Below are positions 1,946 to 55,317 of a stretch of 64,000 nt of DNA, piece by piece. Position 1 is the stretch's first letter; each line of letters begins with the position of its first letter. The notes below the pieces were generated by a model. It did no database searches, was not told where the DNA came from, and saw nothing but the letters and a program-made list of their open reading frames with translations. The translations under genes and the position numbers were made by a program. The DNA is from Vermamoeba vermiformis (Eukaryota), in NCBI GenBank assembly GCA_045837725.1, contig JBEWZL010000056.1, forward strand, positions 248,001 to 312,000. Reading direction: 5' to 3'.

Positions 1946-4288
1946 ATGTACACTATCATATTAGAAACTCCTGAAGCGAATCAATTCGAACCTTGGACTC
2001 CGACAATTTTAATGGAACATCCACAAGAAAAAACTCAGACCAAATCTCCTGAAAAAGAGAAAGAGGACGGCGGAGCATGGCAAACAGTTTCTAAAAATAA
2101 GAAACATGCCGAAGGTGATGGTTTAGAGGTATATAATTGAATAAAGACCTTGACTGCACAGATCACTAATTATTTCATTTTTATAAAAATTAGGAAAAAT
2201 CTAAAAATAGTCAAAAGAACTCGAGCAGCTCACTAAGAAAGAGTAATAACAATATTGCCCTTGAAAAAGACACTATCAATTTTTTTGCTGGCAATCCGAC
2301 CGTGGAGATCAACAAAGGTGTAATTCACTTGTATCGTGATACGGAGAGTAAAGAACAAGCCTCCGTCAAAAGACTACCCGTAAGTACTCCATATTTATCC
2401 ATAAGGGTCTATTTTGCCCTCAGGTTTCCGTTGCAAATCCGCTCGAAGATCGGATCATGCTTCGGACTTTTTTCCTGTTTCAATTTCTAATTTGATTCTA
2501 TTATAGTCCGAGCGCAGTAATATCTTACTCGTGCTGGCCGTACCGTCCTTCATGTCAATTTCAGATTTCTGCAGTTTTTGCGGTGCTTTTATGAAAACTA
2601 TCGAGCACATGCGCATCATCAGGTAACACTCTAAATATGATAATATAGCCCTATATAATATCACCTATTAACCATAAATATCGTAGTGACACGTCACCCA
2701 ATCGTTACATGGTGGCAATGAGATTTGCAGACCAATCGAGTGCCGATGAGTTCTATCAATATTACAACGGCAAGCAATTCACTTCATTAGACGTAAGTGC
2801 TATACTATATTAGTGCCCATGTCCTTTACTAATACTGACATGTATTCCATCGATAGCCTGAAGTCTGTTACGTGGGATTTGTCCGCAAAGTCGAGTTCCT
2901 TCAGCCCTCAAAAGCGACACTTTTCCCGCCAAAAGGATTGACTGAACTGCCCAACTGTCCCATCTGTTTAGGTACAATATTACTACTGATAATTATATAG
3001 AGCATTGTACACTAACAACCATTTGTCTGGTTCAGAAAAACTTGATGCCTCAGAGAGTGGCATATTGACTATTTTGTGCAATCACGCGTGTCATTGCGAG
3101 TGTTTGGCACGATGGCGCAAAGACAACATGTGTCCCATCTGTCGCTACGTGCAGCCAGTAGGCCATAAGTCTCAATGTGCCAGCTGCAGCACGACCGAAT
3201 CGTTGTGGATCTGCGTGGTCTGCGGTCACGTGGGTTGTTCGCGGTACAAAGAAAGTCACGCGTACGATCACTTCAAACAGACGCAACACACTTACGCACT
3301 CGAACTCGAGACTGGTCGTGTCTGGGACTATGCTGGGGACGGCTACGTGCATCGATTGATTCAAAATCAAATGGACGGCAAGATCGTCGAGTTGCCTGGT
3401 CAAGCGCTCGCTGATGACCGCGACGGAGGCAACAGAATTGTACATAAGGACTTGGTACGTATGACTATCCTCCCCTATACTCTACAAGTAAAAAAATTAG
3501 TTTATCTGGCAATTTGCACAACCACAAAATTAACCAAAAATTATACCCGCGATGATTTCACATATGTGAAAAATAATTATACTAGCATGACGTACAATTA
3601 TCCTCCCTTAGATTTATAACTAGCCTTCGGGGTCAAAAAAAAATATCAATTTCTGGCGATTTGCCCCAAAATTGACAAAATTATGGCCCGTGAAAAATAG
3701 TTACAATAGTATGCTAATATGTACGTGTAGGACAAAGTGGAGACGATTGCATTGGAATATCAGTATTTGTTGACAGCACAGTTAGAGACGCAAAAAGTGT
3801 TCTTTGAAGAGCTGTTAGAGAAGCTAGAAAAAGAAAAAGAAGAAAGAATTCAAAAATTAGCGCAACAATCTGAAGTGCTGTCGAAAGAACAAAAAGAAGC
3901 GGCGTTGAAATTGAAAGAATTGGAAAAAGAGAAAAAGAAAGCCGAGAAAAGATCGCAAGAGCTCGAAAAGAAGTTGGGCGAAGTGTCAAAAGAGACGCAA
4001 TTTTTAAAAGAATTGAATCAGGCCTTAGAAACCAATCAAAAGGCGTGGCAAGATAAGATTGAAAATATTGAAAAAAATCTCGTTCATGAAAAAGATCGAA
4101 AAATCAAAGAATTAGAAGAACAAGTGCGAGATTTGATGTTTTACATCGAGGCACAAAAGAAAATTGAAGATTCAACGTCAGAATTGAAAGACGGGCAGTT
4201 GATTGTCGTGCCGGATGCCTCGCCGAAGAAAAATAACAACAATAATACGACGCCTGGACGAAGGACACCGCGCAACAGACGAAAATAA
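1946..4288 (+). CDS. BRAP: BRAP2/IMP/ETP1-like RING and zf-UBP E3 ubiquitin ligase
   Basis: BRAP2 domain (GNPTVEINKGVIHLYR), RING (CPICL..CNHACHCECL..CPICRY), zf-UBP (LWICVVCGHVGCSRY..HAYDHF..VWDYAGDGYVHRL), coiled coil ending LEEQVRDLMFY. Confidence 0.93.
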
Positions 4289-4555
4289 GTCTTGTTCGAA
4301 TATCTTGTAATATATAAACAATAATATTATTAGTGTAAGATGATGATCTGGAAGATTGCCAAATAAGTCAAAAATTTAACTAAAATTATTGTTACGTTAT
4401 CATCCGGAGTTGAACACGAGAGTACGGATCGTGCTAGCTTAAGCTTTACAGCGACATATTAACAGAGTTTAAGGCAGCCAGAAGCAACTGTCACAGGGCT
4501 TGATCTGGGCTTCAAAAAAAAATCAGCTTAGTAGTAGTAGTTTAAATTGTCAAAA

Positions 4556-6613
4556 ATGGAAGTCCATAATCGTATTGATTTTACGGAAATTATGCCAACA
4601 GAGGTAATTATTGTCTGATTTAAATTCTTAAACAATTCGCATTAAATATTTTTACATTACAGGTGTTATTTAATATCTGCTTCAATTTGACTCGCTTTGA
4701 GCTAGCAACGGGTGCAACTATATGCAGAAAAATGAGGCACGTCTGTTTATACCTCTTAGAACACAAACGAAAGATCCGGTTAGTTGACGACATCTTGAAC
4801 GTGATCTTCGTTGCTTTACCCATGTCAGGTACGTCATTGAATTATATGACAATAATCGTTGATTACATTTGTTAGGCAAGACAACCTTAATTAAGGCCTT
4901 GACTAAACAAGAAGGCACCGTTACCCGCGAAGATCGGCCTGATCTAAAAGACGCAGCGCGCACGCACTATATTAAATTGAAGACTGTATCACTACGAGGA
5001 CACCATCAAACAATTACACTATTTGATACGCCCAACGCACCGAATCATCGGTCTTTGAATTGGATCTACGCTTCGCAGGTAACGTCCAAATTTACTCGTA
5101 ATGATATCTGATGCAACGTAGTATTGATTATCCCTATTTCAGTCTGATTTGTGCGTTTTAGTGATGAACGGCATGACTGACGATCCCAATATTGAAGAAA
5201 AAGAGATCAAAGAGCTAATTACCGGTACTTGTCATATGATGAGCTCTCGCGATGTTATTGTTGCCATCAATATTAAGGGAGATGATATTGTGGCTGAAAA
5301 GAGTAAGTTCGATGAAGATTTTCAATGCACGTACTGGATCTTATTGACTTCTTTAGGATTCCGAGAAATGAAAGACAAAGTCTCTCCTATACTTACCAAA
5401 GCAATTGGACCATGTTTCGATGTCATTCCGGTCGATGCAGAGCGAAACATCGGTGTTTTCGCGGGATCAACATTCTCCTGGTTTAAAGGATCTGCCCTCT
5501 GGCCCAGACTCGTGGAAAATCAAAAGAATATTAACTACGATATAGAAGCCGTTGAGAAGCTTCGCCATGGGCCATTTGAGATGCAAATAGCCTTCAAATA
5601 CAGAGTTCGAGGCGTCGGAACTGTTGCTGCAGGCAGAATATTGTGTAAGCGAAGAATTCATTGCAATATGTGTTCAAATAGGTATAAATTAATGTTAATA
5701 TAATAGCTGGTTCGATCGCTGCTACTAAGGACCTGCAAGATAAGCGGATCCGGTGTATCCCTACCACTGTCTCCGGTTGTTGTCTCCGCACCATCGATTC
5801 AGGCCTACATTTGAACTTAAATGAATCTGTAGCTGTAGCTGGTACGCATTATATAAATATACGATATAAATACTGACTAATAGGTCCTAATTAGGTGATT
5901 TTGTGGGTCTTGGACTGAAAGGCGTTTTGTATTCAGAGCTGCGCAAACGATTTGGCTTTACATGGAGCCCCATGGATCCCATCACCAATAAGACAGTCCC
6001 TATTGATAGCACACTCGCATTTCGCATGCAATTTGTGGTCCTAGAGCCGCGCCTAATGGGTCTGCATGAGACTTACACGGTCCACTACGGATCTCACCGC
6101 GTTCATTGTGTGTTGCTGTGGATATTCCCCTCGAGTTCATATAAGACTAGTAAAGACGCCAAAGAGCTGAAGAAGGGCACGGCTATTATGGTGCCGCTTG
6201 AGCGGCTGCCCATCCGCATCTACAAAGCAAACGGATTCCAAAAAAATATTCACGGCAAAGTCATGTTGACGCAATCTACCGGCAAAATAGCAGCTATTGG
6301 TCGCATAGATAAGGTCCTATCAACTTATATGGACCAAGTGCCTATGGCTGTTTCTCCGCACGGTAAGTAATACTCCTACATTCGAAATTTTCTGCAACAT
6401 CTAATTAATACGTTATTCATCTTTGTCATAGATTACATCAAGCAATACGATACTATCATATCCGAAGCCAAAGCTCTATTTAATACCCCAAGCGAGGACA
6501 AGTTGTTGGATTCATTTGTCGAGCACTTGAAAACGAGTAACGGCGCTCAAAACAGCGTCAAAATGTTTAACAAACGAACTGATGATCGAGGGTATTACTA
6601 TAAAAATGATTAA
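4556..6613 (+). CDS. F-box fused to a divergent eEF1A/translational GTPase-like module (multi-exon)
   Basis: Spliced N-terminus IDFTEIMPTEVLFNICFNLTRFELATGATICRKMRHV is F-box-like; then P-loop ALPMSGKTT, LFDTP, VIVAIN, SWFKG, YRVRGVGTVAAGRI, AGDFVGL and C-terminal AAIGRI as in eEF1A domains I-III. Confidence 0.8.
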
Positions 6614-16521: not shown

Positions 16522-19050
16522 TTACTCTTGTCTATTCTTGAACCAGCCCTCAACAGCGTCGTCGTCAAATTGAGGCATGAAGTCGACTTCAGTAATCTCG
16601 GTGAAGCCTTCAGACTTGGAGGGAGCTGCAAAGTTCTTGTGGAACACGTTGTAGCCAACGTCAGGAATGCGACGCACGGTACCATTGCTTTGGCGCTATA
16701 TAGAAAAGCTTAGAACGCTGGATTTGGATCGACGATTAAAGACCAGACTTACCTCACGGAAAAGGTTCATATGCTCAGCAAGTTCGCGAGGAGTCTTCAT
16801 AACGAAGCAGCGCACGGGAACTTGATGCTTCTTAGCAGCGGCAAGGTAAGGAGCACGAGATTTGGCATCCGGATTCGTGTTGTCAACGACAGCAGATTTT
16901 CCCTCAGCCAAAGCTTTCTCTACTGCATCCAAGCACTTCTTAGGGGTAAGAAGGGTATCCTAGCAGGAGGTCATGCGTTAGACACGAGATCTAGCTCAAA
17001 CACGATAACGGCTAGTAACTTACTCTATTCACACGAACATAGCCGTGAGGCACCAAGAATCGAGTGGAGAAGGTAGACTTGCCGCTAGCAGGCTGTCCGA
17101 CCATGATGACAAGTTCTTGCTCCTCCTTGGCGTACTTGGGCAGTTGTTTGGGCATCTTCTTCTTGTACTCCTCGAGCAGTTGCACGGGATCGATGCCGCC
17201 CCACTTGAACGGCACTTCTTTCTCGCCCAAGAAGTACTCGTCGGGGGTAAGGAACTTCAAGCCGATATTGTGCGCGAATGCTCTGTCAGTGCACGAGAAA
17301 TCTTTCTTTGCTCCAGCCTGAAGAAAAAAACGGATGTGATCAGTTACGCGTTCCATGAAAAGCAACAGAGGATTAGATAATCGCCAATATTCGATGATTA
17401 CCTTCCATCCAGCAGGGCGACCAGCAGCATCACCAACAAAGACGGATTCTTTCATGTCAACAGCAGCACCTTTGCGCATCGTCTTGACGAAGAAGTCCCA
17501 CATGGAAGTGTGAGGCTTGCGCCAGTGGTTGGTAGCTGCAGCAACGCACGCTTGGATAGGGAAGCCCAACTATATGCGAGAGAATGGTAAGTTAAAGTCT
17601 GTAAGCCCAAACGAAAGCATCCGCCACACCTCTTCAGCCAGATCGAGGATTTTACCGGTAATGTCGTCGATTCTAGTTTTGCCCTTTTCAACACCAGCTT
17701 GATTGGTGAAGATAATAATGTTCCAGCCGTCTTTGTAGATTTCGGTGAGCTTGGGCTTGACTTCGTCGAACAACCAACGCCAATCTGCGCGACCGCTGGC
17801 AAACTTCGCCTTGCTCTTTGGAGTAACAAGAGTATCATCCTGCAATATTGGAAATTAATCGCGCCGTGGAATAAGTAAGAAATGAAATAAAATTGAATTT
17901 AATTCCAGAAAAATATCGCAGCTGAAGAGATTTTTCTTACCATATCAAAAGCGGCGACCTTCTTTGAGTGTTTAATTTCGGGAGAAGTCAAGTAGTAGAA
18001 GGTATCTTCCTCGGCCTCCCATTTAAGACCGAATGAGCCTTTGAACACTGCAGATTGAAAAAGTAACGGTTAGTTGGGAGATCGAGGAAAGAAAATCGAC
18101 AATTTAATTTAGCCATAATTTAGTAAATAAAATTATGTGCACGATCGTACCTTCTTTCTTTTCAACTCTAGCGCGTTTTGCGCGGCTAGATGTAACTGTC
18201 TCTTCTTGCTCGCTGGCAGAGTTTTCTTCTTCAGACTCAGCTTGAGCACGTGTTCTTTTCTTGGGTGGCATAATTGATTGTGTTAGTCGAGGTTGAAAAT
18301 AATAAGCCTACAAACGAATTTATCTTTTTTGGGGACGGCATGTGACACGCCTCCAGAAATAAAAGTCGGGTAGTGTATTTTCACGAAATTAATCACGTGA
18401 GGTACGCGATCATACCGGTATTTTTCAAGTACATACCACGCCTGAAGCTTTCGGCTGTGAGGCTTCGCCGGGGGCTGGATGGGTACATTGTTTGAAGTGA
18501 TCTGGGTTCTTCCTTTTGCACGCAGCGCCATAAGGACAAGGATGCAAGCACTCGATAAAATGTTGCGGATTTTTACGAGTACACTGAGCACCGTACTTGC
18601 ACGGGTGAGAGAATTGAGTGAAATGAACTGGATTTCCTCGCGTACAACCGGCACCGTAGCGACAAGGAGATAATAGCTATCGATTAATTAATATCGATAT
18701 TTTCTATTAATTATAACGATAAATATTACCTTTTTAGAAGTATCGGTGTTGGTGTTAGAATTATTCGAATTGTTATTATTTACAGAGGTGTCAGTATTTT
18801 GTTCATTCGTATTATTATTTTCATCTGTCACATTATCATCATTGTTTTGATCTTCCATTGGCTCATCGTTATTTTCTACCTCTTCGGCAGCTGATTTAAT
18901 TTCTTCTTCGAAACTATTTTCATTTTGGCGCTCTTCCTCTTCCGCTCCACTGTTATATTTTGACCCATAGCTATCTGCTTCATTTATAGGACTCTCTGAT
19001 CCTTCATCGTCGATGATGTCTTGCGAAAGAATCTTGTTGCCGCGTTGCAT
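16522..19050 (-). CDS. PNKP: Bifunctional polynucleotide 3'-phosphatase/5'-kinase with N-terminal acidic tract and 3 PBZ zinc fingers
   Basis: HAD phosphatase (AAFDM|DDTL, FTNQ, RKP, FVGDAAGR, DFSCTD), kinase (GQPASGKS, VVDNTN); upstream exons 19050-18730 and 18676-18437 splice in phase 0 onto 18259. Confidence 0.9.
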
Positions 19051-19119: not shown

Positions 19120-22100
19120 ATGGAGGAGTCCATTTTGTCTGATGTAAACAGCTACAGCGGTGGGTCAGAAGTTGGTTTGGCGGATGTCTACAGCAGATCT
19201 GAAACCCTCGTTGGTGAAGATGTATTATCTATTGAGCTGGATAATTTACATAATCCAGGGATACTGTATACATCCGTAGGTAAGTCTTAGCAACGAAAGA
19301 TTTTTTGAATTCAATCCCATTTTTATTTTCAAAATTCAGAGAGGCGTTATTAACACCGCTGGTAATATTGATCAAGCATGTACTGCTGGATTACAATTTT
19401 CTAAATTTCAAATTTCAATTTGTCTAAGTGTCATTCGCCTTAGACATTGCGGATGTGAGTCCAAGAGACATGTCTATGAGTGAAAATCCGTATTATGAAG
19501 GAATAGAGCCATTGCCTGAAAATAGCGCGAACAATGCTCCGGGAGGCCGCTACTTAGAATCATCGGATCAGCTCAATCAGCTTCATCAGTCAAACGATTC
19601 GTTGTCAGAAACAAGCTCAACCGACCATAATAGCGACGAATCGAGCTGGAATGAACGATTTCAGCGCATTTATAACACCGAGAACTCTTTGGAGAAGTAC
19701 CTAGCATTAGGCAAGCTCGTCAAAGATTTTGTAGACACGGCTCAGACGTGAGTATTATAGTATTATAATCAACGTCAGTTCATCATCTTGTTCGTTAGCT
19801 ACGGCAAAGTCATCATCTCCGAGAGCGCACTGCCAGTCTCAGAAAAGACGATCAAACCAAAACTCGACATTGGTATTGCTGGCGGTGACAAATGTAAGCA
19901 GCACCTTACAACTGAACAATCATTTGCCACATTATTGACGTTTGTGAGATATTTGTGCTGGAATATTGTTCAAATATGCCACGGACAAGGAATTGAATGG
20001 TGGATTTTGGATGTACGGCGGGGACCACAGAAAGGACGAATTTGCTTTGAAGTCAGCCAATCACGAGCTGAAGGGCATTATCAGGTAAATGCCACTATTG
20101 AGCGTGCGGTTATTGACTAACGAATATGGGCGTAGTTACTTGAATGCGGGTGTGAAAGAATTATGTTTGCCACTGATGGTAAGTACATCATAGTACATTC
20201 CAATCGATGTAGTGTTTAATATACCTTCAGGCCGTCATTGACTACGCAGGAATACGATTGGTAGCGGTGGCATTGTTGCCTATCAACGAGACCACACTGC
20301 GTTACGGCAGCAACAACGCTGGTCGCACGATACACAACTCTGACAAGAAGCTCAACATGCACATAGAACGAGTCGCGAAGAAGTTGAATATCAAGGGCCA
20401 TCCAGTGGGATTGACGAAGAAAGTACTGTTTGGCCCTGGTGATCTCGAAGGTCACTTGGGCACCGACGATCGGTACTATGTCCTGGACTTCGCACGTTTG
20501 TACCCGCCTGAGCCTCCCAGCAAGAGAAAGTAAGTCGAATCGTCTTTTAGGGCGATCTAACGCATATTCAGTTTGCACCAGAGAGCCACGTGGTTCAATC
20601 TGTTGCGCCCTGAGCTCGTCGCTTCTAACTCCGTGCCACTGAGCCCTGATGCGTACTCGTGTTTTGAATCAGAAAGTACACGCACCGTTAGCAAGAAAGA
20701 GATTGTCCATGCAACTGTTCGCTTGTACAAGGTCATCATCCCGAAGTTTGCGAAGGATTTTGACGATGCCCAAAGCTTGGCAAACGGTAGCACCGATCAC
20801 AATCAATTAATAGAGAGCTTGCATCGAGCGGGCATCAACATTCGTCACCTTGGTTTTGTTCTGCTTAAGACTACGACACAAGTAGCTCGTTCAATTATTC
20901 TCACAGAGATGGTCGCGAGGGTTATAAAAAATGAAATCAAGAACGCATTCAGAGAGCAATCGATGCTATTCAGCTCGCGAGATAAGATCCAGCAAATCAT
21001 TTTGGACGAAATGAACGCAATAACCGAGACGAACTCCCTCAATTACGTCACATTTTGGACCAACAGAGTGCATGCATTACTCCAGAATAAATTTCAGTAT
21101 AATTACGCCGAGGACCCGCTCAACTCTGAAGTGGAGATTGAAAGCTTGGTTGACAAACGAGTGTTGATCGACAAGCTCGAGATGATGATTGGTACGCTGT
21201 CAACGTTGTCGCTAATGTAGCTTACAGTTTTGTAGGCTTTAAACTGACTCACGCGGCAAAGCAATCCTTCTTGGAATCAGGCACAGCTGTGTTCCGAGAG
21301 GTCGACATTAAGTCTATCGAGCCTCGTGTGAAGCACTTGAATATCGTTGATTATGCCGAGGGTGCTGTGTACATGTACTTGGCAAAGAGTTGCGGAGAGC
21401 GAGAAACCAGCAGGTGGAAACAATATCTCCAAAATGCTATCAAGAGCTTTGCCTCCGCACTGTCGGCTGCACCTTTTGATGGCTCCTCTTGGTAAGAGTC
21501 TGTTATTAACACCTTTCGCTAAGTCTTGCACACAGCTACAAGTTGGCGCGCTGCCTGCACAAGATTACGGAACTGGAGTTAGACAATGGGCCCTTCGAAT
21601 CACTCGTGAAACAAGCGTCAGAGAAGTACGCGCAGTCTATTCTCTTCGGGTACTCGCCTGAGAAAGTACTTGAGAGGCGAGGACAGCTGTTGTTGATGGC
21701 TGCCGGACGCACCAATGAAGAGAAGTACTATCAACTGGCTGGTGAGAGCTATCAGCAAGCGTTCAGATATCCCTCGTGCATGCACATCATTAAAGAGCTG
21801 TTTGAACGAGCCAACGAGGAGCAAGGTAAGACAACGTTGACCTGGTTCATATCTAACTATTAGAACAGGCGAAAAGCTTCTCAACACACTCAAGCTGTCC
21901 CTCTATTGTCCAGTTCTGCAATATCAATTCGCTCATGAATTAACGCGAATTGACGTGTCCAAAGTAGCTGCATTCTCTCAGGCAGAGCTGATACTGCTGT
22001 TCTCAGGACTCAACAAAGTGAAGGAGCTACTTGTTTCGACCTTGAATATCAATGTAAGGCTCTTCACATTAGTACGTTAATATTTGTTGACCGTGGCACA

Positions 22101-25100
22101 GGACGAGTTCATCGAGTTTGCTGCGAACAAGTGGCCTGGCTTGGAAAAGCTAGATATCTCAGGCATTCTCAATATCACTGATCGGGGCTTGGCGGCGGTG
22201 TCTAAATGTACTGACTTGAAGTATCTCAACTTAGATCGGATGGGCATGATTAGCAACGAAGGTATGTATCAAGTCACAATGGCTGGACACTTTGCCCTGT
22301 TTGTGACATCTTCGCAGGTTTGATAAAGCTGTCAAAGGCATGCAGCAAGATTGAAGAGCTGTCAATATGTCAGTGCAGTCAAATCACCGAGGCGTGTTTG
22401 ATACAGGTCACGGATAATTTGCCTCATTTGCAGCACTTCCATTGCATCATGTTCCACGAGCTTCAGCCCAAGTTGTTCACGAGTGAGGGGCTAATTCAGC
22501 TTGTGCGACCTGGCACCAAGACGCTACGTGTCTCAGTGCATCGTCTGACCAATGACAGCGCCGCACAACTCATCCAGAAGATAAATCAAACTGGCGCAAA
22601 GATAGAGAACATCGCGTTTTACAGAGAGAGCGATATGATCGCCGATCGCGATGCTGACACGCGCGGAGAATTAATATCTGAAGAGGGATTTATTCCGCTG
22701 TTCAATGTGCTGCCCCACTTGAAGTCAATCGAGATAAGCAACTTGAACATATCTGACGACGCACTACGGTTCATGCTGGCACACTGCACCAATCTGGAGA
22801 AAATTGTACTGGCCAGTCTAATATGCTCAGACCTGTCTAGCGAGTGGTTAGACGCGATCACCCCGAACAACAGCAAGTTGCAGCACTTGGAGCTCAGGTC
22901 CACAGCCAATGAGACCTCGCGTGTACCACTAATCAAGCAGCTGGCGACGTCTTGTCCTCGCCTCGCCACTCTCAAGACAGAGTCGTTCTACTTGCCCGAC
23001 GAACTGATTGCCATGTCAAACTGTTTTCCTTATTTGCAAACCTTAGACGTGTCCTTCAATGTAAGAGTTTATCGTATTCGAAGACGTTTCTAACATGTTA
23101 CAGCGGTACCTTAACATCGATGACGTGGTGATACGATTGTGCTGCGAGTCATGGCGCAATTTGAAGAAGATTCGTCTTGAGGCTTGTGACAAAGTTTTTG
23201 GCTTCGTGGACTCGCTGCTTCATTTGTCCAAGAACACACCGAAGCTGCAGTCACTGTCGCTGCGGATTTTAGACGAGATTAACCCGATGGCTCTCGCCGA
23301 CTTTTTCTACCAACCAAAGCCGAAGATCACCAAACTGGACCTGTACAAAAGCGCACCAGTCAACGACGAAGCAATGGCCAAGATATTGCCACTCGTGCCT
23401 AACTTGACGTAAGTTTTTAGGTATCATAATAAGTGCTGATTCATGTTTAAGGCATTTAAATTTGTCGTACACACGAGTCACCAACAAAACTGTTAATTTG
23501 CTCGCCCAACACGTGCCTAAGCTGCGAAAGCTTTACATGGACGGCGTTGCTGGATTGACTGACAGTGCCTTCATTGACGTCGCCAAGAAACTGAAGCACT
23601 TGCGGGTGTAAGTCCTCAACGCCTACTACTTCCTCCTCACTATTAAATATTTTACAGTATCAGTGTTGGCGAGCAGATGTCACTGAACGGAGGATGTGTC
23701 GCGTACTTTGCGTACTATTGCGACAACTTACAGAGAGTGGCAATGAGAGTCAGCGAAGATTTGTACGTTGATCCTTCAGTGTTGACTTCACACCTGACGT
23801 GCACTATTATTTGGCGAGGTACGGCACTTAATATACCAGGCTGTCGCTCTAATCGTTCATTGGTTTGATGCAGCCAAGGTCATGTTTTTGTTCTGCAAAA
23901 AGATTCAAGGGCCCATGCGACTAGAGATGCTCAAGAAATCAGCCGAGATTCTCAATCGAGTGTTGTGCACCATGCCCGAGTACTTGAATGATTACAAGGC
24001 GTTTTGGCTAGCCAACGCCCAGAAAATGGACTCAGATGCGCTGCACCAGTACATCTACATGCTCGATTACTGTCCGCAGATCATCAATCTGTTGCAGAGC
24101 TATTGGCAGTACTATCCTAACGACGAGCTGTTCACGTCAAGCTCGCTTAAATTGACGCGCAACTATCTCGTCAGCAAGACCACGTTGATCAAAGTGCTGT
24201 CGGCCCTAACTCAGCCAATCAGTCTACACATGGCAAACTGCATGTGGTTCACTCCTGGTGAAGTGGTAGAGGTACTGTCCTCGTTCCAATTCAAGTCATT
24301 GCATCTGTACAATGACACGTGGCAGTTGTTCCACCAGTCCATTGCCAAATTAAGCACTCTGTCGCAGAGTTCGCTGGTCAGTTTGGAAGTGTCAAATCAC
24401 TATGACTTGCAAGCCCTCGATGTCGCCAAGTTTACTAACCTTACCAACCTTGATGCTTCATTTTCAACGCGTGACTCGAGTAAGTCAAGTAGTTACATAG
24501 CCTGCATCGCTAACACGAATTAGTATGGGGCGCAGGTGAACTGACAGCCATACTTGCCTCTTGTAAAGGGCTCAAAAGAATCGACTTCTCGGGCAGACAT
24601 CAAGCCTCTGCCAGTGTGCTCACTGACAGCGATGCCGAGTCACTGACTTTCGAAAAGTTCAGAGCTGGCGTCGCCGTGTCATTAGCTGATGCTGCGAGGC
24701 TGTTGAAGAACTCGCCCAGCTTGCTAGACTTAAGGATACGGTACGATGAGTGTTATGCTAATAGTGTGCGTCTATTAACGGCTATGTAGCATTGGAGCGG
24801 ATGGCGGACTGGATCGTGTGATCATTGGCAATCTAGTGTCACTTGAACTGTTCGAGACTCATCTGACCAATGACATTTTGACATCGTTGACAACCTGTCA
24901 ACACTTGAAAGAGTTCTCTGCCGTATACTGCACTTTTGGAGCCGACAGCCATGACGCCTTCAGATCATTTTTCAGCTCACTAGTCTTCACTAAGTTAGTC
25001 ATGGTACCAAAGAACAAGCGCGAGCTAAACCAGCACGTGTTTGAATCCATCGCACAACAGTCGCAGTTGCAACACTTTGAAATTGCCTTCCATCCTTGCC

Positions 25101-26061
25101 CTCGTTGGCAAACATGGATTACGTTGATCGAAAAGAACGTTTCACTGAAAAAATTCATTATTCGCGACGGCTCAGTTATGGTACACTTCGCGCTACAAAA
25201 GATTATTCCGCTACTTCCACCTTTGGAGACATTCACTGGCATTTCATTGGATGATAATTTGCTGGCCATTCTTGCGCAGAACTCGCAGAAGACATTGAAA
25301 GTGTTGAACCTTTCAGCAAGCTCGGATCTGACAGAGTGCAAAGCTCTAGGTCTGTGCCGTAAAATGGAAGTATTGGACCTATCGTACTGCAACATTAAAG
25401 ACGAGGACTTGATGCACGTGACGACGTGTCTGAGTGGCCAGCTGCAAGAAGTCTATTTGCGGCAGTGCAAGAACATATCTTCCGCGACCATTATTGCCTT
25501 GTTGCAACACTGTCCGAGACTTCGTCGGATGAATGTGTCTGGTCAGTGCAATCATCCAAGTATTGATTACTGTTTCTAACTCTTCAAATAGAATGTGTTC
25601 AATTGACGGACTCGGTATTACCAGCACTACAAGAGTACGGCAATTGCTTGGAAGAGGTCGATTTAACTCAATGCCCGCTACTCACCGTGGATAAAATCGA
25701 TCAACTCAAGTTATTTTCAGTTGTCCAGCTGCGAGCTTCGCGCAACATTTTTGGGTACATGATCTCGGAAGAAGTGAAACAAATACACGGTACGTGACAA
25801 TAGCATAGCATTAACATTTGACTTAACGTATTTTCTTTAGTCTCGTATGACAATCTCTTCAAGGCACTGGCTCGCAAAGTCTGCACGCGCAGCTTGCTCA
25901 AAAATTACAGTGTGAGACAAGAGGCAACGTACTGCACCACGTGTCAAGCAGTGGTGTGCAAGTCGTGTCTGATCAAGTGTCACAAGGGCCACGAAGTCAA
26001 CGACGAGAACTATTTCAGCGTCACGTGTCAATGCAGTGTCAATTGTAAATGTCAAAAATAG
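19120..26061 (+). CDS. Large Clu-domain protein with helical region, extended LRRs and C-terminal UBR-like zinc finger
   Basis: Clu motifs (GIAGGDKY, DLEGHLGTDDRYYVLDFARLYPPE, LLRPELV, LHRAGINIRHLG, EMVARVIK); FBXL-type LRRs (LDISGILNITDRGL, LDLSYCNI); terminal CT..YCTTC..VCKSCLIKCHKGH..CQC. Confidence 0.85.
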
Positions 26062-26127: not shown

Positions 26128-28278
26128 TTAGTCCGCATGATTGTTGTTATGATTGCTCTCTTTTTCTTTGTCACTTCGCGGTGTGGTCGGAGCAGATCCA
26201 ATAGTGTCCGCTTGTTCACGCTTGAATATCGGTCTGCCGTGGTCAAAATCGCCAGTGAAGGTCATCTTGCTCGGGTCATATGAGCCACTGTCACTCGAGC
26301 CCATCTTGTACGTGCCTTCGCCGTGCGGTAGTCCGTTTGCAAATGAGCCCTGTAGCGTCGTGAGTGAGCTATTTGATGCACTTGTAAGCAGCAGTAGGAT
26401 CACTTACCTCATATTCATCACCGTTCTCTAACAAATAAGTGCCGTGGACCATGTTGTCATCGACAAATTTGCCCTGCAAAAGTATCGTATTAGGAACTAT
26501 TTGCCTTATTTGGTCATGTCTGTTGCCAACAACTACGTACCGAAAACACGTTCTTTTGTTCATTAGTCGTGAATTCACCCTCGCCGTGTCTCCTGCCAGC
26601 ACGCCACTCGCCCTTGTACACTGCGCCAGAGGCACTCTTTGAAGTATTGCGGTTATTTATCGTGTCGGAAATACATGCAATGTTTAGCTTTACCTTGTAC
26701 GTTCCTCGACCGTCAAACAGTCCGTCCTTAAATTCACCTTCATACACGTCATTGGAGGGTAGCAGTAACTTGCCTAATTAGGAACGAACACGTGTCAGTT
26801 CAAGTGTCACAAGCACGTGTCATAATTGTACCTTGGCCGTTGGGTTTTCCATTCTGAAATTCACCTTCGTATATTGTGCCCTCTTTGAACCTGTTAAATC
26901 GTTAACGATCACGTGACTCGTAATTGCAACTGCTCGATTGACTTACGTGAATTTTCCTCGGCCGTGTCGCTGTCCCATCAAATATTCACCTGCAAACCCG
27001 TTAATCTCACTTCTATTTACTATAGTAATCAGTTCGATATACCTTCATAAACATCTCCATTTGCAAAAGTATATACACCGCGACCGTGCTTTTTGCCTTT
27101 GACATAATCGCCCTTGTATCTGTCTCCACCGGCATATTCAAAGCTGCAGCCTGAAATACATGCAAAGATAAGATAACTATTTGGTATAGGGTGTTTGTGC
27201 GTACCAGGGCCATGCAGCGTGTTGTCTTCAAATGAACCAGTGCACGTTAAATTTGTTTGACCGAAGCGATAGGTGCCTTTGCCGTGGAATTTTCCGTTCA
27301 AGAAATCTCCCTCAAAGACATCGCCGTTCATGAATTCGTAGCGGCCGTTAGTGCCAGTCATTTGGCCGTTCTTGAATGGACCATCGTATTTGTCTTTGCT
27401 CGCAAATATTAGCCGACCTGACCCGTGCCACTGACCCAGCTCGAACTGGCCTGTGATGGTATAATCGATTTTATCAATATGTAGGTCATAGTAATAGTGT
27501 ATTATAGTCATTACCTTCATATTTGTCTCCATTAGCGTAATGACACACGCCTTCACCGTGAAATTTGTTGCTTTTGAATGATCCTCGATATTTTTCTTTG
27601 CCTGATTCATATACACCTTCTTTGTATTCCCCATTGTCGAATATACCCTACATAGTATAATTATCATTAATAACCATGCTCTAAACTTGTTTCAGCATCT
27701 TTTGTTGAAATTGTCATTTTTGTTCGAATTTTCATCGCGGTATATTTAAGTATCAAAATGATATGAATATAATATCTAAGTGTATCTTAATACCATTGTC
27801 ATTGTGATATTGCATTTAACGTACTTCGAAGTGACCTCCGTCTTTGAAAATCAATTTCCCTTGTCCAGTCGGCACGCCTTGCTCGAAATATCCTTCATAT
27901 ACATCACCGCTTGCAAATTCATAGCGCCCTTTGCCTTCTTTTTTGCCTTTGTAGTAACCTCCACGATATACGTCGTTGTTCGAGTATTTCACAACGCGCT
28001 GACAGATCCATTATTAGATTGATGTTAAAATATGATAATAATATTTAGGTATCTATACTGATATAGTAATGTCATAATAACGTCTCGAGTAATTAATTGA
28101 AATTAAATTTGATTTTTCAATATTAAAAATCGATTGATTTTAATACGTGCTAGTTTATTATTACTAACGATGTTAAATATAGTAGCGGTGAATTATAGAT
28201 GTGATTAATTATTAGATCGGGTACCTCGTCGGCACTATTGGCTGCTTGACCGGATTTGCTTGTTCCGTTCGCGCTCAT
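26128..28278 (-). CDS. MORN-repeat protein
   Basis: Many YxGxF/WxxGxxHGxG repeats (e.g. YKGDYVKGKKHGRGVYTFANGDVYEG) over many exons. Confidence 0.92.
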
Positions 28279-45013: not shown

Positions 45014-45965
45014 TGTCAAAATAATAATTTAATTATTATCACATCGAAAATAATAAGGTGCGCCATTAAGCAGAGTTTTCGATTGAATTTTTGCGAGTTC
45101 GTTTTCTAAAAATTCGAATAATGATTATTGAGCAAGAGCGAGCTTGCTTTATTATAGTGCATCGTGTAATAATATAAGATATAATTATAGGCGAATTAAT
45201 ATCTCCAAACAGTCGTAAAGAATTTCGAAATAATTCAAGAAGCTTACTGATATTCCACACTGGCTACAGTGGGTGAATGTACCTCAGCCATATTATATTA
45301 CTTGTATAGTGCTTCAATCGATGGAAATAGATTTCAGAAATCAACAAATTGCTAGAACACTGATGGCTGACACGTGATTATTTCGTTTTTGCGTTTTTAA
45401 CCACGTGGCGCAGTTCTAAAAGAGGCATTTCAACCTTGACAGCAGACTGTTCTCCATGAGGCTAAGGACAAGGACAAGGACACCATTATCGTTCAGCAAG
45501 CAACATGGAGCCTTTTTAACGACCACTTTCGAGTCTCTTACAATTTGTTGACGATATCAATATGACATAATAATAACGACCATAATTCTAACCATGTTAT
45601 TATACATGCCAACTCCAATTAATATTGGCAACTCGATTAATTGTTATTTGAAAGCTTCCTTTGAATGCAGTCGCACTGCCTCCGTGCTTAAAAGGCGTTG
45701 CTTTCCCTGTGCGAGCCTCGGCGAAATTGTCCCTCGTTCCGTTGTCCCCTACAAAAGTCAAACTTTTTCTGTTCGCAGCATGCTGGGAAGAAAGGGACAA
45801 AAGCACAATCTCCACACACGCGCATTTTTTGTTTTACACAACACCACACAACACACTTCTCTGTTAATTATTCGGCTTGGTGGCTAACTTACACACCGTC
45901 GCTTAAATAACAGAAACCTAACAACCCATATTCTTATTACAACTCGAAGGCTAACATACACTTCA

Positions 45966-47018
45966 ATGGATTCTGCTCTTGCTGTCAAAGTCAAGTACGG
46001 TGATCAATTCCGTCGCTTCAACTTGAAGAGTAACTCGTTTGCTGAATTTTCGCAAGACATCCGCTCCATTTTCCAGCTGGATACGAATCTTCCCTTGGTC
46101 GTCAAGTACTTGGACGACGAAGGCGACGAGATTATTATGAGCTCTGATGCTGAATTAATCTGCGCGATTGACTTGCTGCCTGCTTCTGCTAGCCGCTGCT
46201 TGAAGGTCTTCGTGCAGATTCAGCAACAACCACTGCCTGGCTCGTTCCCTACCACCCCGGTGCAGCCGATGTTCTATCCCCAGCCTGTGCCTGCTCAACC
46301 CAAGATGTCTCATGACGCGTGGCGCGAAGCTGTGAAGCAGCGCAAGATGGAGAAGCTGGAAAAGAAGATCGAGAAGAAGATCGAAAAGAAGTTCGACAAG
46401 CTGGCTGACAAGCAAGAAAAGGCTGGCATGGTCCGTCCAATGATGGCTCGTTTGGTCTCGCACGTCACTGTGCCTGATGGCCAGGAGTTTGGACCGGATG
46501 TGACCTTCACCAAGACCTGGAGACTGCGCAATGACGGCACTCAGCCCTGGAGCGCCAACTTCTCTTTCTTGCGCGTGTCGCGTGGAGAGGACGCGTTGAA
46601 TGCACCTCTCTCCGTGCCACTCGGCCAAGAAGTCGCACCAGGGTGGGAAGTGGACATCACGGTCACCATGAAGACACCCACGCAGCCTGGCGCGTACGAG
46701 AACTTTTGGAGACTCACCACGCCTGAGGGCCGCAAGTTCGGTCAGAGAATCCGCTGCAAGATTGCCGTCGTCGCGTCCAGTGAAGACGACAGCTCTTCCA
46801 ACGAACAAAAGTCAGGCAAAGAGACCAAGCAGCAGTACTTCGCTGCACTGCGCGACAAGTACCAAGTGCAGCTCAATGTCTTGCACCAGATGGGCTTTGA
46901 GGGCTACGATCGCAAGTTGTTGAAGAAACTCGACAAGTTCCAAGGCAACTTGGACCTCGTGTTGAACTTCATCATCACGCGCAAGAAGAAACTCGCTGGA
47001 GTGGATCCCAAGCACTAA
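45966..47018 (+). CDS. NBR1/p62-like autophagy receptor: PB1, NBR1-FW and UBA-like; intronless
   Basis: PB1 (VKVKYGDQFRRF; VKYLDDEGDEI), FW domain (VTVPDG..FTKTWRLRNDG..W; WRL..GRKFG), C-terminal LHQMGF UBA-like. Confidence 0.88.
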   Translation: MDSALAVKVKYGDQFRRFNLKSNSFAEFSQDIRSIFQLDTNLPLVVKYLDDEGDEIIMSSDAELICAIDLLPASASRCLKVFVQIQQQPLPGSFPTTPVQPMFYPQPVPAQPKMSHDAWREAVKQRKMEKLEKKIEKKIEKKFDKLADKQEKAGMVRPMMARLVSHVTVPDGQEFGPDVTFTKTWRLRNDGTQPWSANFSFLRVSRGEDALNAPLSVPLGQEVAPGWEVDITVTMKTPTQPGAYENFWRLTTPEGRKFGQRIRCKIAVVASSEDDSSSNEQKSGKETKQQYFAALRDKYQVQLNVLHQMGFEGYDRKLLKKLDKFQGNLDLVLNFIITRKKKLAGVDPKH

Positions 47019-53681: not shown

Positions 53682-55317
53682 ATGTTAGACAGCTATTCCC
53701 AGATCTCAACACCATTCAAGTCCTCGGTTAAGAAATCGGTAAGTTATACTAACAGATCTGAATTTTCCAGACCTGCTCCCCACACACCGTACAAAACTCC
53801 TTCAAAGACTCGCTATGGTGATAGATTTATCCCACAACGCAAGTAAGAATCCTTAAATTCGTATTCTAAATAAATTAAATATTGACGTTCAATTCGAAGC
53901 TCGACCGACCTCGAACTCGGCCACTTCAGTTTAATTCATGATAAAGCATTGACCTCCAAAGCAATGCTCGACACTAGTCCCTCCAAAGAGCAATACAAGT
54001 CTACCATTGCAGACTCGTTGTTCGACTCGAATCCACACAGCAAAATTCTTTCTTTCCAGAACAAAACCAAGAATCTCAGCACATCCTCTGACGATTACGA
54101 GAACAAGCGCAAGCTATTGTATGCGCAAAACAAGTTTGTCAACAACACTCAAAAGCCCTCGCGTGTCATTCCCAACGCACCAGAGAAGATCTTGGACGCA
54201 CCCGCGATTATGGACGACTATTATCTCAACTTGCTTGATTGGAGCTCTTCAAATATGCTCGCTGTTGCTTTGAAGCAGTCGGTGTATTTGTGGAATGCCA
54301 GTGATCAATCTATTGTCGAGGCGAGTATTAAAACCATTTTTTCCACGATTTATCTAACCTAGCATTGCAGTTGGTCACCCTTCAAGAGGAAGATAACTAC
54401 GTCAGTTCATTGTCATGGTCTCAAGACGGCACACTGTTGGCTGTTGGCACAAACTACAACGACGTTCAGATCTGGGACGTTGAGCGCAGCAAACAATTGC
54501 GTCGCATGCGCGGTCACACAGCTCGTGTCGGTGTCTTGGCTTGGAATCAACACTTGGTCAGCTCTGGCAGTCGCGACAGCAGCATTTTCAATCACGACGT
54601 CCGCGTGGCTCAACACCACATCTCGAGCTATCAACGACATACCCAAGAAGTCTGCGGTCTCAAGTGGTCGCACGATGGCACTCAATTGGCCTCTGGTGGT
54701 AATGACAACCTCGTCAATGTGTGGGACATGCACAGCACCGAGCCTGTCTACACGATGAACCATCACCTCGCCGCTGTCAAAGCTATCAGCTGGTGCCCGT
54801 GGCAAAAGAACTTGTTGGCTACTGGAGGTGGCACTGCCGATCGCACCATTCGATTCTGGAACACGTCCACTGGTGCTTGCTTGAACGCTATTGACACTCG
54901 CTCTCAAGTGTGTCAGCTGTTGTGGTCGAAAAACCATCGCGAATTGGTCTCATCGCACGGGTATTCACAGAACCAATTGATCATTTGGAAGTACCCTCAA
55001 ATGCACAAGGTCGCTGAACTGACTGGTCACCAGTCGAGGTAAGTGACGCACGTTTATTGCCGTGCCTTCGATGTACTAATGACTGTTGCAGAGTACTCCA
55101 TATGACCATGAGTCCCGATGGCAACACTGTTGTTTCTGCCGCTGCTGATGAGACTCTTCGCTTCTGGAACATCTTCGAGAACGAGTCGTAAGTAAAGCAT
55201 TGCTAGATATCATCTCGGTACTAACTCCCTACCAGGCCTGTGGCACAGAGTCCTAAGAAGGTCATTCCTGTTCGCAAGAACGCTCCTCTCAGCCTCAGCA
55301 GCATCAAGATCCGTTAA
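53682..55317 (+). CDS. CDC20: APC/C activator CDC20/Fizzy
   Basis: C-box [30 protein letters not shown]40 repeats, C-terminal IR tail. Confidence 0.95.

Follow-up and report, generated by a model that had tools for sequence, protein, structure and literature searches.

In proteins of the EF1A family, domains II and III bind aminoacyl-tRNA, eRF1 or Pelota, and contact with the ribosome is made by the G domain. Ski7, Hbs1 and eRF3 are EF1A-like paralogues that carry N-terminal adaptor regions. An F-box protein is characterised by the target of its second domain, and to our knowledge no such protein uses an EF1A-derived pseudo-GTPase for this recognition. The gene described here lies on the + strand at 4556-6613 of a 64,000-nucleotide stretch of Vermamoeba vermiformis contig JBEWZL010000056.1 (the whole stretch is termed the window, and all coordinates refer to it). 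It is an expressed, spliced and selectively maintained gene that encodes a 549-residue protein comprising an F-box, an EF1A-fold pseudo-GTPase and a helical C-terminal tail. The protein can be classed as an F-box protein whose receptor module had not been described before and, equally, as a representative of a new EF1A-derived pseudo-GTPase family. A full-text literature search, judged mostly on abstracts, returned no paper on a fusion of an F-box to an EF-Tu/eEF1A-like domain, in agreement with the initial annotation of the locus, which knew of no characterised protein with this architecture. This is a genuine and unusual architecture, found in a narrow family and with a putative function. 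We place the probability at roughly 60% that the F-box docks on Skp1/cullin-1 and that the switch-dead EF1A body acts as the recognition module.

The gene model contains eight exons (1650 nt when joined, 549 codons followed by TAA), separated by seven introns (47-69 nt), all bounded by GT and AG. The ATG follows an in-frame TAG (4538-4540) that lies 18 nt upstream. Short contigs from a public run, X1, are 95-99% identical to the window and exactly skip 4604-4662, 4829-4875, 5079-5142 and 5303-5356. The junctions 4603/4663 and 4828/4876, at which the initial annotation had proposed to look for spliced transcripts, are both present among these GT..AG joints. The elements of the gene are as follows.

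4505..4555, + strand: 5' untranslated region, to at least this extent; the X1 contig piece that reaches furthest 5' begins at 4505 and runs across intron 1.
4556..4603, + strand: exon 1, residues 1-16, start of the F-box (..IDFTEIMPTE), from the gene model; joint 4603/4663 in X1.
4663..4828, + strand: exon 2, remainder of the F-box (to about residue 47, ~4764), linker LEHKRKIRLVDD, β-strand 1 and, from 4813, ALPMS, the initial half of the P-loop.
4876..5078, + strand: exon 3, P-loop GKTT (Gly72 is split by intron 2), shortened switch I region and G3 remnant DTPN at 5025-5036; joints 4828/4876 and 5078/5143 in X1.
5143..5302, + strand: exon 4, central portion of the G-like domain, including NIKG, the remnant of G4, at 5269-5280; joint 5302/5357 in X1.
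5303..5356, + strand: intron 4, 54 nt, in frame and stop-free; removed in X1, absent from the relatives P0002 and P0001.
5357..5644, + strand: exon 5, last part of the G-like domain and beginning of domain II (YRVRGVGTVAAGRIL).
5707..5841, + strand: exon 6, domain II β-barrel, the least conserved part.
5895..6362, + strand: exon 7, last part of domain II (DFVG) and domain III; the family motifs AFRMQF, LLWIFP and FQKNIHGKVML fall here (invariant family columns).
6432..6613, + strand: exon 8, family-specific C-terminal helical extension of ~60 residues and TAA stop.

The X1 pieces stop at 5628 and resume over 5990-6290, covering introns 1-4 only; introns 5-7 are supported by gap-free, colinear alignment to P0002, P0001 and P0082, relatives that have no introns. 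P0002 (562 residues) is encoded on a transcript-like, intronless contig of 2,692 nt. The spliced model aligns to it by blastp with 349/552 identities (63%), 10 gap positions and an E value of 0.0; the initiator Met of the window protein is aligned to Met18 of P0002, and colinearity continues to the last residue. None of the seven exon junctions coincides with a gap in the alignments to P0002 and P0001, as read off those alignments. P0082 represents a second intronless lineage (546 residues, found on three contigs) with the same N-terminus and body. On other genomic contigs, open reading frame fragments enter introns at the positions of window introns 4, 5, 6 and 7 (P0004, P0005, P0007, P0008, P0013, P0018 and P0023, read off the fragment ends). 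The X1 contigs, from a near-identical strain, differ from the window at 20 single letters, 14 synonymous and 6 non-synonymous. The resulting pN/pS of ~0.12 shows that the gene is under purifying selection and is no decaying copy, so the decaying eEF1A pseudogene that the initial annotation had named as its possible refutation is not what is found here.

An open reading frame at 5128-5703 reads through intron 4. The 3' half of this intron translates as YWILLTSLG, and a relative's genomic fragment, P0007, has YWIWLTSLG at the same place. This conservation possibly reflects a retained-intron isoform, or simply a conserved branch and acceptor sequence. In the RNA-seq runs X3-X5, six reads in total match 5518-5606, a domain II stretch, at 90-95% identity and then continue into divergent sequence encoding a GVGTVAVG-like motif; because of this divergence their probable source is a different EF1A-family gene in a different organism, and they are evidence neither way. 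A tblastn search with the model found no second copy of the gene within the 64-kb window.

The initial annotation had described an F-box-like N-terminus continuous with all three eEF1A-like domains. The string quoted for it is present in the translation, and the intronless relatives encode the same fusion in one frame. Because the window subfamily on its own scores weakly, the case for the F-box rests on homology within the family. P0006, a deeper paralogue with the N-terminal sequence LPNEILLEIF, lies above both Pfam cut-offs (F-box 24.1 vs. 20.5 bits, F-box-like 25.6 vs. 24.3 bits) and also passes for GTP_EFTU_D2 (35.7 vs. 30.3 bits). P0030 passes for F-box (25.1 bits), GTP_EFTU (48.7 bits), GTP-eEF1A_C (39.2 bits) and D3, in agreement with its precomputed Pfam list, which includes PF00646. 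Pfam scoring of the F-box gave a divided result, with the paralogues P0006 and P0030 passing and the window subfamily falling below the cut-offs. Comparison of the window-type with the P0006-type N-termini by hhalign yielded a probability of 97.3% and an E value of 2.3e-11, gap-free over 59 columns. A six-member N-terminal profile retrieved 28 PDB sequences at E≤10, of which 27 are F-box proteins by name and the other is CNOT3 (E 0.63); at E≤1e-3 there are 15 matches, every one an F-box chain, led by KDM2A at 3.5e-6. Of the six sequences in this profile, five match Pfam F-box at E≤0.1. The two-sequence profile of the P0006-type N-termini retrieved nothing from the PDB at E≤0.01. Among the other EF1A-like matches, one Pfam scan found an F-box in 0 of 19, and in the remaining rows of the other scan only P0056 matched, weakly, with an E value of 0.06.

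The F-box stretch is 62-74% identical among three window-type members, no lower than the whole protein, and all 12 residues of the linker that follows it are invariant among them. Its N-terminal position is kept in all five distinct full-length sequences of the core family (the window model, P0002, P0082, P0006 and P0069); P0076 and P0081 are near-copies of P0002 and were not counted as distinct. The structural model of P0002 places short helices at residues 26-69. Judged from these comparisons, the N-terminus is a diverged but maintained F-box and a putative Skp1 binder.

In the window exons and the closest relatives, the Pfam signals for GTP_EFTU, D2 and eEF1A_C are all sub-threshold (GTP-eEF1A_C E 0.021 for exon 7; GTP_EFTU 13-24.6 bits in relatives vs. 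a cut-off of 26.5). A two-sequence profile nonetheless matched PDB sequences of archaeal EF1A at 6.4e-11, yeast eEF1A at 1.6e-5, eRF3 at 1.1e-3 and EF-Tu at 0.016 (E values). The fold was modeled with AlphaFold 2 on P0002, a proxy 63% identical to the window protein. An alignment of 64 rows yielded a mean predicted local distance difference test score (pLDDT) of 82.9 and a predicted template modeling score of 0.82, superseding a two-row model with a pLDDT of 33.6. The model contains the three-domain fold of the EF1A/EF-Tu family, a G domain followed by two β-barrels. Its best Foldseek matches are EF1A-family chains, led by 3vmf with an E value of 3.1e-26 and a template modeling (TM) score of 0.74 on the target. 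VIA-align superposed residues 74-491 of the model on archaeal EF1A-GTP with a Z score of 32.5 and a root mean square deviation (RMSD) of 2.7 Å over 381 residues. The best-fitting chains are GTP forms or come from ribosome, eRF1 and Pelota complexes, whereas GDP-form chains give TM scores of ~0.4, and for that reason the body is predicted to adopt a closed, GTP-like arrangement. Domain III is the most conserved domain, with 73-77% identity among three window-type members. The ESM Atlas returned only low scores (0.82), all to translational GTPase clusters and many labelled Nucleocytoviricota; these are unconfirmed leads.

Domain III is followed by a C-terminal extension of ~60 residues, which is helical in the P0002 model (helices at 502-561). 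Block means of pLDDT over residues 511-562 are 96, 97, 91, 79, 54 and 38. The extension has no Pfam or ESM Atlas match, and its best PDB sequence, at E 0.24, is not meaningful. The extension, the multi-paralogue nature of the family and the less degenerate F-box-EF1A form P0030, with an intact P-loop and DTPG, are additions to the initial annotation.

The nucleotide-binding motifs of the body compare with those of canonical EF1A-like sequences as follows.

G1: GHVDSGKS in canonical rows; ALPMSGKT in the window protein, which fits [AG]x4GK[ST]; SLPESGKS in P0002, SLPSAGKT in P0082, GPPQSGKT in P0030; lost in P0006 and P0069.
Switch I: ~45 residues after G1 in canonical rows, including GKGSFKY and RGITI; ~27 residues shorter in the window protein, with neither string present.
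G3: DAPGH in canonical rows; DTPNA in the window protein; ETPNG in P0002, RPPNK in P0006, DTPGN in P0030, DTPGS in P0056.
G4: NKMD in canonical rows; NIKG in the window protein; NFMS in P0030, NKIE in P0056.

The window protein thus retains the Walker A pattern of G1 and lacks the switch I Thr of G2 (RGITI), the DxxG and His of G3 and the NKxD of G4. P0002 and P0082 keep GK[ST]T with Ser at the first position of the motif, and the catalytic His that follows G3 is missing from every F-box-bearing form in the alignment. Domain II retains GVGTVAAGRILSG. The erosion reported in the initial annotation (ALPMSGKT, DTPN and NIKG) is borne out, since these strings are found in the translation and align at the G1, G3 and G4 positions of canonical EF1A-like proteins. 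So are the retention of YRVRGVGTVAAGRI and AGDFVG, both at domain II positions, and the loss of RGITI and GKGSFKY, both of which fall in the ~27-residue deletion. By its motifs the body is unable to work as a GTPase switch; that of the window subfamily may still hold nucleotide or phosphate via the P-loop.

A HMMER scan of 1.84 billion representatives yielded 66 matches at E≤1e-3, 23 at ≤1e-10 and 8 at ≤1e-30. The strong matches are fragments or full-length members of the family; from ~1e-9 down, most are EF1A-like proteins whose Pfam domains are ordinary. The relatives came from JGI, Logan, NCBI and EukProt, and P0006 and P0009 are transcripts of V. vermiformis. Two relatives found with exon 7, one of them P0002, are labelled 'translation elongation factor EF-1alpha' by their source, a name that is misleading for these proteins. 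A metagenome scan found one locus, L001, at the end of a contig and with just the C-terminal half of a gene of the P0006 type, and a search for homologues of P0030 gave no additional F-box-bearing relative. The family is small, lineage-restricted and multi-paralogue.

Phylogenetic analysis was carried out on 30 rows and 438 columns, with canonical eEF1A-like rows included and named eEF1A, EFL, eRF3 and Hbs1 references left out. The core family forms a single clade with a Shimodaira-Hasegawa-like approximate likelihood ratio support of 100 and a stem of 1.81 changes per column. It is nested within 19 divergent EF1A-like sequences (support 98), apart from the canonical eEF1A-like rows, so that neither its grouping nor its sub-threshold Pfam domains are those of a canonical eEF1A. 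P0030 and P0056 sit on long branches, and their positions are not settled by the tree. A topology uniting all F-box forms has a slightly better likelihood (+7.08) and is not rejected (approximately unbiased test, p 0.664), and a K-N-x-[RH]-G insert in domain III is common to P0030 and the core family. On this sequence evidence, one origin of the F-box-EF1A fusion is possible.

Divergent EF1A-like proteins without an F-box occur on ENA/JGI contigs (P0034, P0037, P0057, P0003, P0048, P0063 and P0068). Several of the divergent forms have altered G motifs, for example DVPGA in P0034, and they make up the 98%-supported clade together with the F-box family. P0006 and P0069 carry a basic, probably helical insert in domain III, which is absent from the window type; it takes up ~65 alignment columns in P0006 and is shorter by a few residues in P0069. 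Scans of viral contigs with the family alignment A5 and with P0056, P0030, P0037 and P0034 found no relative; because single-protein scans catch close relatives only, this is weak evidence against a viral link. The G+C content of the window in 2-kb bins is 0.38-0.52, mostly 0.38-0.48, which is compatible with a V. vermiformis-like organism; that of V. vermiformis CDC-19 is given as 41.7% in the available part of PMC7125106, whose main text, as available, mentions neither an F-box nor an elongation factor.

In the preferred mechanism, the putative N-terminal F-box would dock on Skp1 of a Skp1-cullin-F-box (SCF) ubiquitin ligase. The EF1A-like body, no longer cycling as a GTPase, would be the putative substrate-binding part; because it is predicted to be closed, GTP-like and unable to cycle, it would serve as a constitutive recognition module. 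The ligand is a guess: whatever normally fits domains II and III of the EF1A family, be it a tRNA-shaped factor, a translation-factor partner or the ribosome. We infer the SCF role from the functions that F-boxes and domains of the EF1A family have in proteins already characterised. The initial annotation had proposed an SCF adaptor with an eEF1A-like bait; its architecture and the pseudo-GTPase erosion stand, and the adaptor function is putative, with the window F-box below the Pfam cut-offs. A more specific version, in which a new class of SCF substrate receptor uses the closed, switch-dead EF1A body to dock at the ribosomal A site/GTPase centre or on tRNA-shaped factors such as eRF1 and Pelota, is a long shot. 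If true, ubiquitin ligase activity would be brought directly to translating or stalled ribosomes, in an amoebozoan route of ribosome surveillance or translation control unrelated to the known ones.

Several observations weigh against the SCF receptor reading. Exon 2 alone scores 17.6 bits for Pfam F-box_4 vs. a cut-off of 32 (E 0.0037), F-box-like scores are 18.6 bits for P0002 and 22.1 bits for P0082 vs. a cut-off of 24.3, and a profile of three window-type N-termini reaches just E 0.23 against the KDM2B F-box in the PDB. In the window protein, Met-Pro replaces the leading Leu-Pro of the consensus and Met replaces the Trp of the usual C-K-x-W. The fold evidence derives from the 63%-identical proxy and not from the window protein, and the closed conformation is an AlphaFold prediction, not a measurement. 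Domain II, in which the aminoacyl pocket of real EF1A sits, is the least conserved domain, with 43-54% identity among three window-type members. Finally, the RNA nature of run X1 is an automated guess; the run is read as cDNA because of its GT..AG-precise joints.

Some F-box proteins act outside SCF ligases, and the window protein would be another if its F-box-descended helices no longer bound Skp1 and it served as an EF1A-derived pseudo-GTPase scaffold. The sub-threshold F-box scores of the window subfamily and the Met residues at the consensus Leu and Trp positions fit such a scaffold, which we consider unlikely though credible, since the F-box stretch is as conserved as the remaining protein (62-74%), its hydrophobic register is the same as in paralogues above the Pfam cut-offs, and its N-terminal position is preserved in 5/5 distinct full-length core sequences. 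The eroded G motifs and the sub-threshold GTP_EFTU score might suggest a decaying retro-copy of eEF1A, or a false joining of two adjacent genes. This possibility is barely credible and was rejected. The frame is open over eight exons with seven canonical introns and is colinear with P0002, spliced joints in X1 connect exons 1-2-3-4-5, pN/pS is ~0.12, intronless relatives carry the same fusion in one frame, and the upstream gene stops on its own at 4288.

The initial annotation had also raised a bait or decoy for pathogen effectors, for which there is no positive evidence. As a decoy or guard, an eEF1A look-alike would trap pathogen or giant-virus factors aimed at eEF1A and deliver them to a ubiquitin ligase. 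The setting is suggestive: P0006 and P0009 come from V. vermiformis, which the available part of PMC7125106 describes as a niche for amoeba-resisting bacteria and giant viruses, and the family evolves fast (stem of 1.81 changes per column), has several paralogues and is restricted in lineage. However, the segment with GKGSFKY and switch I, which would have to be mimicked, is deleted, and even the P-loop is gone in P0006 and P0069; for these reasons a faithful eEF1A mimic is unlikely. The surface is just 15-19% identical to real EF1A and the viral contig scans gave no relatives, and the decoy is altogether improbable. The SCF receptor reading is preferred. If it is true, the ligand likely belongs to the translation apparatus, which would link ubiquitination to elongation-factor-like recognition in amoebae. 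Apart from function, the family displays GTPase decay as a natural series: P0030 has both an intact P-loop and DTPG, the window type only the P-loop and the P0006 type neither. Such a series is useful for studying the origin of pseudo-GTPases.

The upstream neighbour (2993-4288, + strand) encodes a zf-UBP domain (E 3.9e-24) and, after it, a long coiled-coil tail, and its product looks like a BRAP2/Etp1-type ubiquitin ligase. It is a separate gene and has its own stop at 4288, so the F-box exons are not part of it. At ~21800-25800, also on the + strand, lies a long multi-exon leucine-rich-repeat gene (Pfam LRR_At5g56370, E 9.9e-9 and 7.3e-6), whose repeats resemble the cysteine-containing repeats of F-box/LRR proteins. 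Scans for tRNA genes and Rfam families found none within the 64-kb window. The following neighbours are ordinary eukaryotic housekeeping genes.

17015-17569, - strand: PNK3P phosphatase.
20561-21217, + strand: CLU/eIF3_p135 domain.
27032-27691, - strand: MORN repeats.
45888-47015, + strand: NBR1-like protein with PB1 and N_BRCA1_IG domains.
54332-55039, + strand: CDC20/Fizzy WD40 protein.

Compared with eEF1A and archaeal EF1A, the body has the same three domains in the same order (Z score of 32.5, RMSD of 2.7 Å over 381 residues; profile E 6.4e-11), and the window protein keeps the domain II GxGTVxxGR and the Walker A GK[ST]. It differs in its 15-19% identity, the deletion of switch I, the changes of DxxG to DTPN and of NKxD to NIKG, the loss of the His, the added N-terminal F-box and C-terminal helical extension, and its separate place in the tree. 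With the F-box proteins that serve as SCF receptors, such as Skp2, FBXW7 and KDM2A/B, it shares an N-terminal motif of ~40 residues, and the family profile matches PDB F-box chains (best 3.5e-6). In contrast to these proteins, the motif of the window subfamily is sub-threshold, and an EF1A-like pseudo-GTPase forms the C-terminal module in place of WD40, LRR or any other receptor domain described so far.

The general plan of an EF1A-like body with an N-terminal extension that recruits another machine resembles that of Ski7, Hbs1 and eRF3. The top structural matches to the P0002 model include chains of Hbs1l and eRF3a, with Z scores of 31.1 and 30.9. There is no sequence affinity past the shared fold (eRF3 1.1e-3 vs. 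archaeal EF1A 6.4e-11), and the extension of the window protein is an F-box. The EukProt transcript P0030 differs from the window protein in keeping GPPQSGKT and DTPG, in passing the Pfam cut-offs for GTP_EFTU, D3 and eEF1A_C, and in lacking the C-terminal extension; the two share an F-box followed by an EF1A-like body and the K-N-x-[RH]-G insert of domain III.

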